Positions 1-9,004 of a stretch of 16,992 nt of DNA are shown here, piece by piece. The position numbers were made by a program, and so were the translations under genes. How positions within the stretch are numbered: position 1 is the stretch's first letter; every line of letters starts with the position of its first letter. Source of the DNA: Candidatus Methylomirabilis sp. (GTDB taxonomy: Bacteria > Methylomirabilota > Methylomirabilia > Methylomirabilales > Methylomirabilaceae); NCBI GenBank assembly GCA_041498975.1, contig JBGQJI010000042.1, positions 1-16,992 of the forward strand. Direction: 5' to 3'. Below the pieces are notes generated by a model. It did not search any database, was not told the DNA's origin, and worked only from the letters and a program-made list of their open reading frames with translations.

Positions 1-2135
1 CTGGGCGACATCGGCGACGGCAGTCTAAGGATTAACGAGACCAGCCGACCGATCGCCTCTGAGACGGCGGACGTGTCGCTGCCGACCTTTCCCACATTCG
101 CGAAGACCTCGAATGGCTCACCCTCGCCGCTCTGGTTCACGGTGATGTATGCGACTCCCAGCGGCGTCTCAGCACGGTAGGTCACGCCCTTCACCGTTCG
201 GGGCCGAGGCTTGACCTTCAATCTCTCCTCCTGCCGCGCCCCCGTAGCAGCCAGGGGGGCTTGTCCGACGGACTCTGCACTCCTCGGGAGTTGCGCGCCG
301 TCCTTCTGCTCTGTCTTGCCGCCCGTGCCGAGGTGGAGGACCTGTGTATCCTTGCAGCCGTCGCGAAAGACAGTGATCCCCAGGCAACCAAGCTCATGCG
401 CCATCAGATACGCCTTCGCGATCTCCTCTGGCGTCGCTGAATTGGGCAGGTTGATCGTCTTCGAGACGCCGTTGTCGGTCTGCTTCTGAAACGCCGCCTG
501 CATCTTGACGTGCCACGCGGGGTCGATCTCGTGGGCCGTGACGAACACCCGCTGGACATCCTCCGGCACGCCTTCGAGCCCGCGCACCGTCCCCCTCTGA
601 GCCACGCGCTGCATCAACTCCTCGGTGTGGAACCCCCGCCGCTTGGCGACCTCCTCGAAGATTGGGTTGATGAAGGTCAGGTGGCGGTCGCCAACGATGT
701 GGCTGAACGCGACGGCGAAGATCGGCTCGATCCCGGAGGAGCAGCCGGCGATAATGCTGATCGTCCCGGTCGGCGCGATAGTGGTCACGGTCGAGTTGCG
801 GAGCGGTGTCTTGTCCTTGTAGATGCTCCGAGGCCAGCGCGGAAACGGCCCCCGCTCCACTGCCAGCTTCTCCGAAGCATCGTGGCCGATCCGCTGGATG
901 AAGCCCATGGTCTCCTCGCCAAGCTTGAGGGCATCGTCGCTGTCGTATGGAATGCCCAGCTCGAGGAGCAGGTCGGCCCAACCCATGACGCCGAGACCGA
1001 TCCGTCGGTTGTTCCGAACCTCGTCGATGATGTCTTGAAGTGGGTAGGGATTCACTTCGATGACGTCGTCCAGGAAGCGGACCGATGTCCGGACCGCCTG
1101 CTCCAGCCCGACCCAATCGATCCGCTCCGCCGCCTTGGCGTCTGTTGGGATCGATGGGAGATAGAATGTCGCCAGATTGATCGAGCCGAGGTTGCAGGCG
1201 TCGTTGGGACCAAGCGGCTGCTCGCCGCATGGGTTAGTGGCCTCGATCACCTCGTCCTGCGGGACCGGATTGGCCGGGCTCGCATTGATCCGGTCGATGA
1301 AGACCATCCCCGGATCTCCCGTCCGCCAGGCCGCATGGACGATCCTCTCGAAGACCTCTCGAGCGCGGAGGCGGCCGGTCGCCTGCTTGGTATGCGGATC
1401 GAACAGCTCGTAGGTCTCATCCTTCGCCAATGCGTCCATGAATTTTTCTGTCGCAGCGACCGAGATGTTGAAGTTGGTGATCCCTCCGTCCAGTTTGCAG
1501 TCGATGAACTCTAGAATGTCGGGGTGATCGACCTTGAGGATCCCCATGTTGGCGCCCCGACGGGTCCCGCCTTGTTTCACCGCCTCGGTGGCACCGTTGA
1601 AGACTCGAAGGAAGCTGATGGGGCCGCTCGCCTTACCGCTCGTCGATTTCACCAGCGTGTCCTTCGGCCGCAGCCGAGAAAACGCAAAACCCGTGCCGCC
1701 CCCACTTTTGTGAATAATTGCCGCGCGTTTCACCGCCTCGAAGATCCCCTCCATCGAGTCCTCGATCGGCAGGACAAAGCAGGCCGAGTACTGGAGGCCG
1801 TTGTCTTTGCCGGCGTTCATCATCGTGGGCGAATTGGGGATGAACTTTCCCTCGACCATCACATCATAGAACGACTCGGCGATCGTGCGGGCCTCAGCCG
1901 AACTCTTCCCCCATCGCTCCTCGGCCTTGGCGATGGCGGCCGCCACGCGCCAACACATCTCTTCCGGCGTCTCCTTCACGCCGGTGGCGTCCCGTCTCAG
2001 GTACCGCTCCCTGAGGACGCGGAGGGCCGACTCACTCCACAGGCCGGTCTTGGCCGGTCGCTCACCAAGCGCTTGCGCAACGCCCACGGTCTCTTCGATC
2101 CCTCGAGAAGCCGAAGAACTCGATACGCCCGCCAT
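1..2135 (-). CDS. nrdJ: Class II adenosylcobalamin-dependent ribonucleotide reductase (3' end truncated by window edge)
   Basis: Hand translation of the minus strand from ATG 2135 (GGGGAGG RBS upstream; alternative in-frame ATG at 2180) is open to the window edge. It contains [63 protein letters not shown] (thiyl-radical Cys), [38 protein letters not shown] and GITVFRDG. These are followed by a [11 protein letters not shown]...[11 protein letters not shown]...PFEVF C-terminal domain typical of NrdJ. Confidence 0.95.
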
Positions 2136-2261
2136 CGTGTCCTCCCCTATTTCCGGCGACTCCGCCGGTGCCATTTCCATTGTACCTTTTGAAAAAAGTC
2201 ACGAATAGTCAAACCACTATATCCCTTCCACTACTGTTCTGTACCAAGGCATGATGAAGGC

Positions 2262-2324
2262 ACCTAACACGACTCAGCATCAGCCGCGGCGCGAAGTGGC
2301 GTCAGCTGCATGCCGTTGATAGGC
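2262..2324 (-). mobile_element. Integron attC-like site (59-base element) 1, degenerate
   Basis: Minus strand, 3 nt after the TAG of the DUF6414-like gene: GCCTATC (R'', one mismatch to RYYYAAC)-AACGG-CATGCAGC (L'' with extrahelical G)-...-GCTGATG (L', complement of CAT[G]CAGC)-CTGAGTCGT-GTTAGGT (R', GTTRRRY). The L'-R' spacer is longer than canonical. Confidence 0.75.
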
Positions 2325-2327
2325 AGA

Positions 2328-3233
2328 CTATACGAAGACCATGAGTGGAAGCACCTGTACAACCGGTCCGGGAACCTGGACCTCGCTGAATTCAGCGCGC
2401 GCCTCTTCATTCGCAGATATCTGCGCGAAAACTGTTTCAAGCTTTTCTGGCTTGAGAAGCGCCATCCCGTAATTCTCGAACGCACTCATCGTCGCTCCCT
2501 TAGGGATCACGCGTGTGACCTTTCCAAGTACGCGGACGCTGTTCTTGTGAAGCTCGCTCATGGTCAGATCGCGAAGATTCGCCGTACGAAGCGTTACCAC
2601 TGCCGTGCACCCCGTCGGCTCAGAGCAACGAAGAAGTACGTTAGATATTGGCGTTCGATTCCGGTCTTTGTCCAGGGTATCGCGAATCGTCCTCAGGGGG
2701 GACGTGGGTCCAGAGCCAGCAACCCCCTTGTGCTTCCCGCCGGCTGGACGTTGCGGTTGTGTTTGGAGCGCGAGGCTACTCAAGATATCGACTGCATCGA
2801 TGTAATCAATGACGGTATCGACGGCGTTTTTCTCAATCGTCCCAGCCAATTCGATGAGCGCCCCAGGTGCCAGATTCTGAAGATCGTCCAGCTGCCTCGG
2901 CTGAACGATATAGCCACCGTCGCGCGTGAGGCGGTCGTAGAGCAAGATGGCGACAGACGCTTCGGTATGGCCGCGGGACTCTGTTTCTCGGGAATGCTCA
3001 CGGTTCGCGCGCTCTTGGGATACGTCGGCTTAAACCGACGCATCGAAGAACCGACCGAAGAGCGCGCTTAGCCCGAACTTGGCAGACCCACCCGCCTCCG
3101 TTGTCAAGGCGGATGTTCGCTCACGGGTTACTTCTGCGCCAAACGAGACCCCGCCCTCAACTGCTGCCGCGAAAGAGACCAGCATCGGAACGTCGAGATA
3201 GATGGGATGAATCAGTCTGATCTGATTGCTCAT
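2328..3233 (-). pseudogene. DUF6414-like hypothetical protein (~301 codons) interrupted by a single in-frame TAA at 3030-3032
   Basis: Track ORFs 3030..3341 and 2328..2945 share a frame. Reading through gives MSNQIRLIHPIYLDVPMLVSF...FFDASV*ADVSQERANREHSRETESRGHTEASVAILLYDRL...VLPLMVFV. The PIYLD start, HTEAS motif and C-terminal PLMVF resemble DUF6414 (family assignment from memory). Confidence 0.7.
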
Positions 3234-3246
3234 GGTTCTCAGTTTT

Positions 3247-3328
3247 GCCCCACACTGGGCGTCACCCGCTGCCGGAAGCGGGGGCGCAGCGGATGCTGGA
3301 GCGCGTCGGCTGCAGCGCCGAGCCTGCT
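3247..3328 (-). mobile_element. Integron attC-like site 2, strongly eroded
   Basis: Lies between the AIPR stop and the next ATG. Minus strand: AGCAGGC-TCGGC-GCTGCAGC-CGACGCGCTCCAGCATCCGCTGCGCCCCCGCTTCCGGCAGCG-GGTGACG-CCCAGT-GTGGGGC. Box spacing and the GCTGCAGCCGAC core fit attC layout, but both R boxes are mutated (GTG instead of GTT). Confidence 0.55.
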
Positions 3329-3337
3329 CTCTTCCAC

Positions 3338-5074
3338 TCATAACCTCGGAAGCGAATCTTCTACGACCTTTTTCGCTAGGCTATACACTTTCCACTTGGA
3401 TTGAATCCTCTCCCGGATTTTCATCCACCACTCCTGACTGCGCACAAGTGTTGTAACCTCATTTCCTGCATCAACCAGTTCCTGCATAGCTTCGACATAC
3501 CACTCGAGCGCAATCGTTGCGTAGTTCCTTAGCCGTGTTTCAGTTGTTTTACTAATAGCAACGTCTGCTTTGAGCTTGTTCAGAAAAGTCTTTCCATTCC
3601 GTTCGTGGAGAATGATAGCCATAGCGGCGAGAACGAAAAATTTCGCACCCCGTTTGAGGATTGCGACACGACCAAGCTGCTGATCTTGAACCGCTTGCTC
3701 CAACTCTCTCTTGACCACCGTGGCGGCGACGGAGGCAGCCTGCCACACCAGCACGAGCTCTTCAGCACGAATCTGGTCAGGAAAGACATCGTCGTAGTGT
3801 GATGAAAATACTCGCCCTTTGTCCTTATAGGCGATTGCAGGCAGACCGCGAAAGGCTGCCAGGCACTGCGCTGCAAGATCGTAAGGAATCGCCCGCAATC
3901 CACCCGCACCAACGCGCTTGAATTTCTTGCGTTCGGGCGGTGGAAGTTGTCGCGTTTCGCCTTTTCTGAGGACGTAGAGGAATGGCGTTGGCAATTGTGC
4001 CAGCTCGCGTTTGAGCTTTTTCTGTAGCTTGTCCTGAGCAGTCAAATCCCACAAGCGAATTGGATTCTGCGAGTTGGTATAGCGAATAATAGGATCGATT
4101 GCTCGTTCAGGGGCGGCAATGAACCTCGCCAGCACGCGAACCTGCCTAACAGATGTCGGAGGCGAGTTTGCGATGGTGACGGTGGTCTGGCAGCCGTTAA
4201 CGATACTGAAGTTATTTAGAGTAAGAGTCTTACCTGCAATGTTGTAGGAGTCGCACACAAAGGTAACACCGTTGTTGTATGCCCAAAAGTTGGGCCTATC
4301 ATTCTCCGAATCAATCGTGCCACGAATACCAGCATTGACCCCTCCTTTGCGTGCGCCGAGGAACAATCGAACGTTTCGATCAAAGAGACGGTCGCCATGG
4401 TTGGAGTAAAGTTCTCGGAGTTGAGTTCCAGTGAGAGTAGTAACAAACGCTTTACCGAATCCACCCTTCTCCTCGAATGACATGGTGGGAATCACCTTGA
4501 GAGCGGCGTTTCCAATTCTGGTGGTTTGATTAATACGTTCGTTGTGTTCTGCAATTAGACTTTCCAGATGAACCACTCGGCACGATCTGGACGGAACGTT
4601 CCCTGCCTCGGAAACGTTGAATTGCCGGGCTGCATCATCAACGTCTTTGTACGGTGGTCCGCAGTATGCGTAAATGTACTCGACCGAGAAGCCATGACCG
4701 GTAGCATCCTTATAATCCTGAGCAGCAGCTGCAAGGTCCGCGCGACCCTCGCGTTCAAGTGATTCCGGATCCTTTAGCCAATCAGAGGTGTGAATGAGGC
4801 CGAGCAGCTCGCCCTTCCGTCCCTTGTATTGCCCCTTCGCATTGAACTTCAGTTGTGCGATCAAGACTCGTTCAGCTTCTTGATCAACATGGAAAAAGTC
4901 TATGTCCTTGTCGTTACCACCGTCGAACGAGACAGCCTCATATGCCTCGTCTTCTTGCAACTCAAGGCTATCGACCGCGTACCAGAGACCGAAGGCTTTT
5001 CCCTCCGTGAGGGAATATTCGGTCCTATACTTCTTGACCTGATCGCCAAGGTACACTAGAAAAACATCTTTCAT
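3338..5074 (-). CDS. AIPR family (abortive infection phage resistance) protein
   Basis: AIPR motifs LFDRNVRLFLG, FWAYNNGVT, IVNGCQTT and TNSQNPI. The N-terminal DGGNDKDIDFF...IAQLKF is a PD-(D/E)xK-like motif. ATG 5074 has AGAGG 9 nt upstream. Visibly more AT-rich than the flanks. Confidence 0.9.
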   Translation of the reverse strand: MKDVFLVYLGDQVKKYRTEYSLTEGKAFGLWYAVDSLELQEDEAYEAVSFDGGNDKDIDFFHVDQEAERVLIAQLKFNAKGQYKGRKGELLGLIHTSDWLKDPESLEREGRADLAAAAQDYKDATGHGFSVEYIYAYCGPPYKDVDDAARQFNVSEAGNVPSRSCRVVHLESLIAEHNERINQTTRIGNAALKVIPTMSFEEKGGFGKAFVTTLTGTQLRELYSNHGDRLFDRNVRLFLGARKGGVNAGIRGTIDSENDRPNFWAYNNGVTFVCDSYNIAGKTLTLNNFSIVNGCQTTVTIANSPPTSVRQVRVLARFIAAPERAIDPIIRYTNSQNPIRLWDLTAQDKLQKKLKRELAQLPTPFLYVLRKGETRQLPPPERKKFKRVGAGGLRAIPYDLAAQCLAAFRGLPAIAYKDKGRVFSSHYDDVFPDQIRAEELVLVWQAASVAATVVKRELEQAVQDQQLGRVAILKRGAKFFVLAAMAIILHERNGKTFLNKLKADVAISKTTETRLRNYATIALEWYVEAMQELVDAGNEVTTLVRSQEWWMKIRERIQSKWKVYSLAKKVVEDSLPRL

Positions 5075-5289
5075 TATCAACGTCCTCTACAGCAGTGTCG
5101 CGTCGGGCTAAGCACTGAGTATGCGGGTCAGCATGTCCTGGTCCTTGCACTTCTGACGACTGCGGCGATACCCTCGGGTGTTCGAGGACCTGTCAACGTG
5201 CCCAGGACCCTGCCGTTGCCCACAAGCATTGGCCAGCATAACCCAACCAAGGTTTGAACCGACGTGACGCGCCTGTCGAGCTCGGAAGA

Positions 5290-5337
5290 ATACCATATTT
5301 TGTGCGTGGGATTGTCTAATACAACAATATCTAGTGT
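5290..5337. promoter_or_regulatory. Tandem NrdR boxes
   Basis: ATACCATATTTTGTGC (5290-5305, 12/16) and CAACAATATCTAGTGT (5322-5337, 13/16) against the consensus acaCwAtATaTwGtgt. Their starts are 32 bp apart, the characteristic NrdR tandem spacing, and nrdJ lies downstream on the minus strand. Confidence 0.8.
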
Positions 5338-5345
5338 GTTGTCAA
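5316..5345 (-). promoter_or_regulatory. Putative sigma70 promoter overlapping the NrdR boxes, directed at AIPR/nrdJ
   Basis: Minus strand TTGACA (5345-5340), 18 nt, then TATTAG (5321-5316). The -35 is perfect and the -10 is weak. Confidence 0.5.
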
Positions 5346-5380: not shown

Positions 5381-5457
5381 GTCATTGCGAGCGAAACGAA
5401 GTAATCTGGCCTTTTGGCTCTTAGATTGCCAGGCACCCTTTGGGTGCTCGCAATGAC
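5381..5457. repeat. Palindromic REP/RPE-like intergenic element
   Basis: Perfect 12-bp terminal inverted repeat GTCATTGCGAGC...GCTCGCAATGAC, with inner stems (AATCT/AGATT; GCACCC-TTT-GGGTGC). Confidence 0.8.
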
Positions 5458-5663: not shown

Positions 5664-6956
5664 ATGGCCTACGTCGTTGCCGAGCCTTGTATCGGGACCA
5701 AAGATCGCGCCTGCGTGGAGGTCTGCCCGGTCTCATGCTTCTACGAAAACGAAGACCAGCTCTTCATCCATCCGCACGAATGCATCGACTGCGATGCCTG
5801 CGTGCCGGTCTGTCCGGTCAGTGCGATCTTTCCGGAGGCCCAGGTTCCCGCGGAATGGAAGTTCTTCACGCAAAAAGCCATCGACTATTTTGCCGAGAAT
5901 GCAGGCGTCAAGGCCGCGAAGAGCAAGAGCGAGGTCGGATCCGGTGGTGTTGCCGAGGGCTCAACCCACTGGAGCTGGAAGGGCCAGCCCGACGTGGCGG
6001 CCAAGCCGCCACCCGCAGCGGCTACACCTGCTGATAAGCTTCAGGCGCCCCCCGAGCCTGCAACCGCCACAGCTCACGCAACCTCTTCGGCCGTGGTTGA
6101 ATCGCCCTCGGCCCCGGCCCCGCCCCAGCCTACAGCGGTGCCGGCCACGGCCCATGCTGCTACGGCGACTGTGGCCGAGGTAGCTGCGGCCGCCCCCAAG
6201 CCTGCAGCTCCGCCTGTCACAACGCAGGCGACCGCCGCCACTGTCGCCGAGGCGGCAGCAGCCCCGGCTCCGCCCAAGCCAGCTCCCGCGGCCCCCGCTG
6301 CGACCGCGCCAGCCGCAAAACCTGCTGCCAAGCCGGCCCCACCGCCCCCCAAGCCGATGGATCCGGATGAATACCGGCGGCTTCACGCCCTGCTCTATCA
6401 GCTCATGGAGATGCTGGGGGGCTCTCGACCATTCGATGTCGCGGCATTCTCTGAGGCGGAAGAGGCAGGAAGGCGCCTGAAAAAGGAGGTGGCGGTCGAG
6501 TTCGGAAAGGACGTGTACGTGGTGTCTGAACTGGAGAAAAAGGGGATGACCCTTCGCCAGAAGCACGATCTGGCGCAAGGCCTGCTTCAAGCGGTAGGTC
6601 GGGCCCAGTTCATCCCCCAGTATCGGGGTAAGCGCCAAAGGTTCATGCAGCTCGCCGCCGGCGGTGCGGTGACCGGCCTGATCTCGGCTCTCTGTGGTGT
6701 TCTCTCCCTCCAAACCGTTCGCATCGATTCGCTCCTGACGAGTCCGAAGCCTGGCTTGTCCGAAATGGTCCAAGCGTTCCTGAATCCGGAGAGCCTGATC
6801 CCATTCCTCTCGTTTCAGATGATAGCCGGCCTCTTCGGCCTCTTCACCATCTTTGCGATCTCTCGGTGCTGGCGGGTGATCAAGGAGGTGCACGAACTCA
6901 AGCGGGCGATGCAGGCCAAGCAGTTGGATCCCAGGTTAATCGCCCGAATGGCGTGA
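5664..6956 (+). CDS. 7Fe (FdxA-type) ferredoxin fused to an Ala/Pro-rich linker, a helical domain and two C-terminal TM segments (430 aa)
   Basis: GGGAGG RBS before ATG 5664. N-terminus [27 protein letters not shown]...[22 protein letters not shown] (C-x7-C-x3-CP and CxxCxxCxxxCP). The same frame continues through an A/P/T-rich tract to two hydrophobic segments. Confidence 0.85.
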
Positions 6957-8280: not shown

Positions 8281-8448
8281 ATGGAACAGTTCTTGACAAT
8301 CGCAACCCAGCCGGACAACATCCCGATCATCGGAATGCTGGTGCTTGTCTTAATCTGCTTGGGGCTCGCCATGAGGCAGGCGTTTGCCAATGACCGCCTC
8401 ATCGAAAAAGGGCAGAAGGACAAGATCTTCCGGGAGATGTACAAGTAG
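8281..8448 (+). CDS. Small single-TM protein with PDNIPI motif (55 aa)
   Basis: Strong AAGGAGG RBS before ATG 8281. MEQFLTIATQPDNIPIIGMLVLVLICLGLAMRQAFANDRLIEKG... Confidence 0.75.
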   Translation: MEQFLTIATQPDNIPIIGMLVLVLICLGLAMRQAFANDRLIEKGQKDKIFREMYK

Positions 8449-8503
8449 GCCTTTCGCGTCGATGCCTCCGATCTGCGCGCCCGATCCCTGAGGAGCCGAA
8501 CGC

Positions 8504-9004
8504 GTGTTCATCCTGGTCACGATTGCCATCCTGGTCGGCGTTGCCTTGATTCTCTTGATCACTCGTTCTTCGTCGCCGGTGGCCGCCGAGAAGGCGTATT
8601 ATCAACCCAGAGGCGCAGAGCAACAGCGACTCGAGCGACTCGCTCCCGAGCAGTTCGAGCGTCTCTGCATCCGCCTCCTGGAGCAGATGGGCTTAATCAT
8701 CAACTCCTTCAACAGCAACAAACAGGGGCAGATCGACATCACCGCTGTCAACCCTCAACCGATCACCGGCGGCGACTACATCGTTCACTGCCTGCTGGCG
8801 CCACCCGATGAGCCGATCAACTCCACCCGGATCATCGCCCTGAGCGATACCGTTCGTGCCGAGGGGGCATCCAAGGGGATTTTTATCACAACCGGTTTCT
8901 TCTCCGAGGAGGTTCCGAAACTCATCGAGGGGCCGCCGCTCGAATTGATCAACGGGCAGCGCCTTCGACAGATCCTCGGGGAACATCGAATCTCCCTCGC
9001 CTGA
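8504..9004 (+). CDS. Membrane-anchored Mrr-like (restriction endonuclease fold) protein
   Basis: GAGGAG RBS and N-terminal TM helix. Mrr_cat-like motifs PEQFERLCIRLLEQMG, GQIDI, GASKGIFITTGFFS and LELINGQRL. Confidence 0.8.
   Translation: MFILVTIAILVGVALILLITRSSSPVAAEKAYYQPRGAEQQRLERLAPEQFERLCIRLLEQMGLIINSFNSNKQGQIDITAVNPQPITGGDYIVHCLLAPPDEPINSTRIIALSDTVRAEGASKGIFITTGFFSEEVPKLIEGPPLELINGQRLRQILGEHRISLA

Follow-up and report, generated by a model that had tools for sequence, protein, structure and literature searches.

Anatomy of the nrdJ leader

We analyzed a 16,992-nt stretch of DNA (the window), which forms the start of contig C42 of a Candidatus Methylomirabilis sp. genome (the source genome; assembly size 2.68 Mb, completeness 84.9%), and focused on the 5' leader of nrdJ. 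This gene codes for a class II ribonucleotide reductase and has no other match in the source assembly. Its leader carries two gene cassettes with associated recombination sites, an integrase-less integron platform and, farthest from nrdJ, a pair of predicted binding sites for the repressor NrdR (Table 1). An earlier note on this DNA had described two NrdR boxes that are separated from nrdJ by an AIPR gene and a DUF6414-like gene. This observation was largely right and the anatomy is well supported, but one of the two genes is broken and the boundary of the insert is a different one. The integron origin of the insert, the defect of the second gene and a candidate second promoter (P2) had been missed.

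Table 1. Features of the nrdJ leader and of its immediate surroundings (window coordinates)
Feature	Position	Strand	Remarks
nrdJ, class II ribonucleotide reductase	3..2135	-	NrdJ_Z 685 bits; runs off the window
Candidate -10 of nrdJ-proximal promoter P2	2179..2184	-	no clear -35, no NrdR box
Distal attC	2262..2324	-	mutation in the left core, none in the right core; bottom strand forms an end-to-end fold
Cassette 2, DUF6414 gene	2328..3233	-	in-frame stop at 3030-3032
Degenerate attC between the cassettes	3247..3320	-	left arm recognizable, both core boxes decayed
Cassette 1, AIPR/AbiU-family gene	3338..5074	-	578 aa, intact; PF10592 143 bits
attI-like site	5105..5134	-	crossover between 5112 and 5111; core GTT -> CTT
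Integrase-less integron platform	5105..5270 (approximate)	-	homologous to the stretch from intI 3' end to attI of broken same-orientation integrons
Decayed cassette promoter Pc	5168..5196	-	-35 intact (5191-5196); -10 (5168-5173) without the conserved A
NrdR box 2	5290..5305	-	18.8 bits; 16-bp linker from box 1
NrdR box 1	5322..5337	-	17.1 bits; between -35 and presumed -10
-35 hexamer TTGACA of ancestral nrdJ promoter P1	5340..5345	-	perfect in 12/12 aligned leader loci
Ferredoxin-domain gene	5664-6956	divergent from nrdJ	profile match

NrdR sites consist of two 16-bp boxes with a linker of 15-16 bp and six conserved positions (C4, A6, A8, T9, T11, G13) (PMC13584703). Both window boxes carry all six positions and have the 16-bp linker. 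As had been noted before, they are 32 bp apart (start to start) and adjoin a minus-strand TTGACA. A pair of this strict type occurs only once in the 2.68 Mb of the source genome, and ten shuffled genomes contained 0-2 pairs each (3 in total). In a matrix scan, the window pair was the top tandem of the source genome (36.0 bits vs. 24.3 bits for the runner-up); the matrix had been trained solely on array-free relatives, and one of the training pairs (L008) had wrongly been taken from a repeat. The nrdR gene is present: we found it on another contig of the source genome (TIGR00244, 197 bits) and detected it in four of five close relatives.

The earlier note had expected relatives in which the boxes adjoin nrdJ directly. 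Such an arrangement was found in 13 of 19 same-genus genomes, which carry the box pair near nrdJ without any array; four others have arrays and two are uninformative. In the 13 array-free genomes, box 2 is located at -140 to -143 (ten genomes), at -158 (one) and at -277 and -504 (two), and short repeat-like inserts intervene in the latter two. Deletion of positions 2268-5247 from the window, which had been predicted to bring the boxes to some 180 nt from the nrdJ start, leaves 175 nt. The position of the -35 hexamer relative to box 1 is unchanged in the array-free relatives, and the promoter layout is common to other families of the order. With the pair, the nrdR gene and the conservation in relatives at hand, the boxes mark a putative NrdR-controlled nrdJ promoter (P1).

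Several other candidates were considered and rejected. No second NrdR site was found near nrdJ (best box score 1.6 bits between 2140 and 2300), and a half box at about 2212 was dismissed at this score. The boxes were not taken as LexA sites since the motif of the lexA promoter differs and since the boxes track nrdJ in genomes that lack the ferredoxin neighbor. The latter argument and locus L065 also led us to reject that they belong to the divergent ferredoxin gene. A second NrdR-like pair, again 32 bp apart and flanking a perfect -35, precedes a solitary 454-aa methyltransferase-like gene on contig C28 of the source genome (about 8430-8477; L114:2931-2978) and ranks second by matrix. This pair was not found in the 19 other genomes of the genus, and we do not claim it as an NrdR site because it fits the loose pattern only (21 occurrences vs. 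17-34 in shuffles).

The insert is composed of the cassettes (2268-5111) and the platform (about 5112-5270). Foreign cassettes in the nrdJ leader had been recognized correctly before, but the insert edge that had been placed at 5247 falls inside the platform. The GC content of the AIPR gene is 0.51 vs. 0.63 for nrdJ. Of the two genes, which the earlier note had both listed as cargo, only the AIPR gene is intact. The DUF6414 gene, which has no PADLOC match, is interrupted by a stop codon that is also present in an identical 3588-nt contig of run X2. This contig led us to reject an assembly error, and X2 may come from the same campaign as the assembly.

Both attC sites follow co-oriented open reading frames (ORFs), and in pairwise scoring they were the top two among 1354 windows. 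The distal site scored 61 (shuffle maximum 37), and the score of the second-ranked middle site was reached by 1 of 300 shuffles. A blast search of the whole genome with the attC set lacked sensitivity: it gave ten matches and missed the middle attC. With at least two attC sites, one of them degenerate, and no adjacent integrase, the locus has the make-up of a CALIN, an attC cluster that has no integron integrase. It is not a complete integron: there is no intact intI beside attI, the core reads CTT and the -10 of Pc is decayed. Mutations in the attI core, in the middle attC and in the distal attC (left core) give the array a frozen appearance. No cassette-skipping junction was seen in the contigs of four runs, an assembly level at which rare variants are dropped.

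Four further copies of the platform are present in the source genome and two of them (contigs C6 and C218) are located directly behind same-strand remnants of an intI 3' end. These copies hold a promoter with a perfect -35, a 17-nt spacer and a -10 in which the conserved A and T are present, and they end in a core that also follows the integrase-bearing loci of relatives (L070, L077, L079). We read the promoter and the core as putative Pc and attI, the latter by position and homology. No integrase is located near the window array; broken remnants of intI occur on other contigs of the source genome, and integrase matches above cut-off are confined to the sister clade. Among the 12 leader copies, the attI core is intact in four and decayed in eight.

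Beyond the leader, 27 other platform copies were counted in nine genomes, some of them in tandem. At L084, L087, L091 and L085/L098, the Pc-attI module is found two to three times within 1-3 kb inside arrays, and some of the copies are preceded by a shared sequence that resembles an insertion-sequence end. The module itself appears mobile. On contig C6, a platform, a broken integrase and lexA are clustered within 7.1 kb (LexA/PolB2 region, C6:22000-30200), and a platform copy of genome G012 (L096) stands behind a similar LexA-type promoter. The leader of genome G014 (L035:about 3270-3350) has kept the last intI codons, and its platform allele differs from that of L064 despite the same cassette. 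The platforms of L033, L034 and L035 contain intervening hairpin elements.

Cassette turnover and cargo in the clade

A pattern derived from the 5' untranslated region of nrdJ, which involves no selection for arrays, retrieved ten metagenome loci. Together with five genomes (the source genome and four array-bearing relatives, completeness 82-94%), 15 loci of the clade were available; two of the locus contigs end before the promoter. Cassettes were present in 15 of 15 loci and an empty allele in none. Thus, the empty site that had been predicted for relatives exists in the genus but was not found in the clade itself. Whether other cargo occupies this spot had been asked before, and 12 different arrays were found (one same-strain pair and two pairs with a shared cassette each being counted once). 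The cargo begins at the attI core, and in most loci it ends at a shared downstream sequence. A pattern scan of contigs yielded six stretches, four of which were known loci and two of which came from unrelated taxa.

In an nrdJ tree of 31 rows, the ten array rows formed one group (93/85) next to an array-free clade, and the leaders are empty in the sister group and in the outgroups. The tree left out L059 and L068 (too short) as well as L063, L066 and G014 (contig ends before nrdJ). A single gain followed by turnover would fit these data best. The same cassette was found behind different promoter/platform alleles (L033/L063, 96% identity; L035/L064, 98%), and in runs X14 and X15 an AIPR gene of 99% identity is followed by different downstream DNA, the divergence starting at 3300 inside the middle attC. 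The shared cassettes and the X14/X15 difference suggest that block exchange may also occur. The cassette at L033:2691 onward, which is also present in L063, has lost its attC, and in genome G009 its frame runs stop-free into the nrdJ frame. In L022 (genome G032 of another family), nrdJ has a leader of about 720 nt that seemingly contains an unrelated small ORF; a comparable site would here have received an insertion of its own.

For the cargo, we scanned 18 ORFs from the other loci and the window genes; two very short ORFs fell outside the scan. Strong PADLOC matches (E < 1e-20) were obtained in 5 of 12 leader arrays: AbiU was hit twice, and the others were PDC-M34A/B, PDC-S32 and a type II restriction enzyme that is accompanied by its methyltransferase. 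Pfam contributed RES and DUF4145 as well as a weak match to GIY-YIG, and about ten ORFs of the slot had no family match. Of 25 ORFs scanned behind the other platform copies, a single one gave a strong PADLOC match; several of these ORFs are metabolic and six are toxin- or nuclease-like (BrnT twice, DUF4258, HNH, RusA, nucleotidyltransferase). Metabolic cargo, which is common there, was not seen in the leader slot. The excess of defense genes in the leader (5/12 arrays vs. 1/23, Fisher p 0.012; first ORFs 3/10 vs. 1/23, p 0.07) is suggestive only, since whole arrays were compared mostly with first ORFs and since the rows are related and unevenly sampled. In two arrays the first position is taken by an AIPR gene, and these two genes are unrelated (30% identity over 227 aa).

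The AIPR frame of the window is intact, the domain score is above cut-off and PADLOC returned AbiU. Assignment to MzaE was not justified: the score was 67.5 bits at a cut-off of 1050, and there are no partner genes in the array. Among 8000 scored candidates, at least 574 relatives were found at E <= 1e-30, some of them labeled Acidobacteria or Verrucomicrobia; none was found in viral contigs, and 150 other genomes of the phylum contained none at E <= 1e-60. Four residues (D51, K56, D59, Q74) are invariant across 89 aligned AIPR sequences. The fold predicted from the single sequence was unusable (pLDDT, the predicted local distance difference test, was 34), and the structure model that we used reached a pLDDT of 84.5. 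Residues 1-183 of this model match restriction-endonuclease folds (Z 9.7, root mean square deviation 3.2, 115 aligned residues; FokI Z 9.1, MspJI Z 8.4), and residues of about 200-335 weakly match ParB/sulfiredoxin folds (Z about 5). Foldseek returned nothing at E <= 0.001 for the model. The protein is therefore modeled as an N-terminal restriction-endonuclease-like domain followed by a central ParB/Srx-like domain, and its resemblance to anti-phage proteins is one of profile and fold.

Promoters of the cassettes and rival explanations

A strictly intact Pc was found in 0 of 12 leader copies but in 20 of 27 copies elsewhere; with lenient settings the figures were 3/12 vs. 21/27. The attI identity is alike in the two groups (0.82/0.77 vs. 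0.79/0.78). In seven leader copies the -35 of Pc has been lost, each time in a different way. In the same 12 loci the -35 of P1 is perfect and both boxes are kept. A search from P1 to nrdJ gave no terminator on the minus strand. Since Pc has decayed while the -35 of P1 was retained, the cassettes probably depend on the NrdR promoter P1, and we regard de facto NrdR control of the cassettes as likely. Two short contigs of an RNA run match the AIPR gene exactly at a depth of 2-2.6; this signal is weak and could be DNA, and the run, with its small share (0.06), carries no information on start, strand or level, so that missing coverage elsewhere is uninformative. Close to nrdJ, the P2 hexamer lies 44 nt before the start codon. 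It is the same in 13 of 14 loci, with a consensus-compatible variant in the 14th, and similar motifs occur in two array-free relatives. These data suggest a second promoter that would make the site insert-tolerant.

Taken as a whole, we consider the following explanation rather probable. A platform consisting of Pc and attI without an integrase would have landed once in the nrdJ 5' leader, in the ancestor of one Methylomirabilis clade and just downstream of the NrdR-boxed P1. Integrases from elsewhere in the genome, acting in trans, would have filled this attI with one to three cassettes, and cassette blocks would also have passed between strains via recombination between the conserved flanks. 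Pc would have turned redundant and decayed, so that the cassettes would now be read mainly from P1 and would follow NrdR, being repressed at high dATP and expressed at low dATP. Co-transcription would supply nrdJ by read-through, to which P2 probably adds. In the window, the slot would thus hold an intact AIPR gene of the nuclease type and a dead DUF6414 gene between largely frozen recombination sites.

A number of observations weigh against this explanation. P1 fails a strict sigma-70 scan and its -10 must therefore be weak, and the same scan gives a 9-of-12 site ahead of AIPR (5101-5073), which is at chance level and overlaps the AIPR start codon. When the -35 of Pc is considered alone, the difference (5/12 vs. 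21/27, p 0.06) is not significant. The leader copies share ancestry, the Pc counts are thus not independent and the -10 change may be a single event; moreover, divergence of the leader copies is greater around Pc in general, including its spacer and a stretch of 25 nt upstream. No intact intI was found in the source genome or in the four array-bearing relatives. The window gave no match to a sequence-only attC model, for which the underlying alignment (16 rows) was poor, and the tree support of the array group is below the starred threshold.

If P1 were of minor importance for both parts, AIPR would be transcribed from a promoter of its own (residual Pc or an internal one) and nrdJ from P2. 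The -35 of Pc is still perfect in the window, three leader copies pass the lenient Pc test and P2 is conserved. In contrast, every locus that extends far enough shows conservation of P1 and of both boxes, whereas Pc is eroding. Boxes without a use would be expected to decay, and there is no second NrdR site near nrdJ. We therefore consider such independent units unlikely. Far less probable still is an entry of the cassettes at a secondary attG site instead of a transplanted attI. Integrases do insert at attG sites and expression from resident promoters is possible (10.1101/2022.09.11.507474), but homology to the intI tail, Pc and attI extends over the 165 nt that precede the first cassette, and the intI codons of G014 point in the same direction, so that this route is largely refuted.

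The anatomy of a leader-landed platform read from P1 is compatible with neutrality as well as with selection, and selection is the sole difference between them. In the neutral case, to which we give a little less than an even chance, one of the scattered platform copies fell into a tolerant leader, the boxes persist for the sake of nrdJ and control of the cargo is incidental. The many copies elsewhere, the decayed attI cores, the pseudogene in second position and the complete loss of attC in one relative agree with this. Neutrality leaves unexplained why no locus of the clade is empty, why AIPR is intact amid decaying neighbors and why the cargo leans toward defense. Alternatively, the slot may have been kept as a defense hotspot, in which low dATP, as a sign of phage replication or of depleted nucleotides, would relieve NrdR repression and thereby confine the expression of costly nuclease-type cargo to times of need. 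The PADLOC matches, the first position of both AIPR genes, the lack of metabolic cargo and the retention of the boxes although nrdJ may have P2 speak for this wiring. Set against it are the uneven comparison, the toxin- and nuclease-type genes of other platforms, the seven of 12 arrays without PADLOC match and the fact that integron cassettes are rich in defense genes anyway (10.1101/2024.07.02.601686). Selection for a dATP-triggered defense is thus possible but rather doubtful.

NrdR binds DNA once dATP has replaced ATP and represses at high dATP (PMC13584703), and consequently only a shortage of dATP would induce the cassettes. The copies in the LexA region and behind the LexA-type promoter of G012 cut both ways, since they may reflect recurrent capture of DNA-stress promoters or widely landing debris. 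During phage infection, the dATP pool may shift in either direction. In its most far-reaching form, for which we have only tentative confidence, the explanation would be that a domesticated platform gave up its own promoter and became a clade-wide exchangeable defense slot under NrdR. A fall of dATP in the course of phage replication would in this case activate ribonucleotide reductase along with the nuclease-type cassette that the respective strain carries, and the platforms behind LexA-type promoters would indicate that capture of DNA-stress promoters recurs in this lineage.

Relation to known systems and neighboring features

Integrase-less arrays, same-orientation integrons, defense cassettes and expression from resident promoters have all been described (10.1101/030866, 10.1101/2025.06.18.660453, 10.1101/2024.07.02.601686, 10.1101/2022.09.11.507474). 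Like CALIN and the integrase-less chromosomal arrays of Xanthomonas, which are said to be mobilizable in trans (10.1101/030866; 10.1101/2025.06.18.660453), the window locus has attC-bounded cassettes without adjacent integrase at a fixed place, and its content varies between lineages. Unlike these, it keeps attI and a Pc remnant and is located inside the 5' leader of a housekeeping gene, directly downstream of a repressor-controlled host promoter. With same-orientation (inverted-integrase or reverse) integrons (10.1101/030866) it shares Pc and attI after the intI 3' end on the same strand, but here the integrase has been lost, and many copies of the Pc-attI module are scattered about, some of them in tandem within arrays. 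Anti-phage integron cassettes (10.1101/2024.07.02.601686; 10.1101/2024.07.02.601719) are likewise of the defense type and their expression is set by the position behind the promoter. However, a constitutive Pc drives the cassettes in the former study, the main text of which does not mention AIPR or AbiU.

The box pair resembles that in promoters of ribonucleotide reductase operons of the NrdR regulon (PMC13584703), but the boxes of the clade are 1.0-3.2 kb away from nrdJ and thus outside the 500-nt window searched in that study, and the first downstream genes are variable foreign cassettes. The AIPR domain and the modeled ParB/Srx-like core are in line with the AbiU1/AIPR family (PMC3506569; PF10592; PADLOC AbiU). 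Unlike family members, the window AIPR stands alone without a restriction-modification partner, and its N-terminus models as restriction-endonuclease-like and not as HEPN, as stated for the family (PMC3506569). In the literature outside subscription papers and preprint supplements, we came across no attI platform that is located within a leader under NrdR control. The usual driver of cassettes is a constitutive Pc, and NrdR has been described as repressor of ribonucleotide reductase operons. If our explanation holds true, a core metabolic sensor would govern a variable gene slot, which would offer a testable route from the deoxynucleotide status to inducible defense, and the slot would provide a candidate list of defense genes. 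If the wiring is incidental, the locus still illustrates the spread of integrase-less attI modules and the recruitment of a host promoter.

The divergent ferredoxin-domain gene upstream of the leader codes for a ferredoxin fused to a membrane-ending domain, with a long Pro/Ala linker in between. Several families have this gene as the divergent neighbor of nrdJ, but the array-free sister clade does not. An inverted-repeat element that is multi-copy in these genomes is located upstream of the nrdJ promoter (5381-5457), and the protein encoded at positions 8504-9004 is small and membrane-anchored and contains a restriction endonuclease domain of the Mrr type. The nrdJ gene of genome G009 (L033) carries at about residue 148 an in-frame insert of about 460 aa, which is intein-like by its ends.

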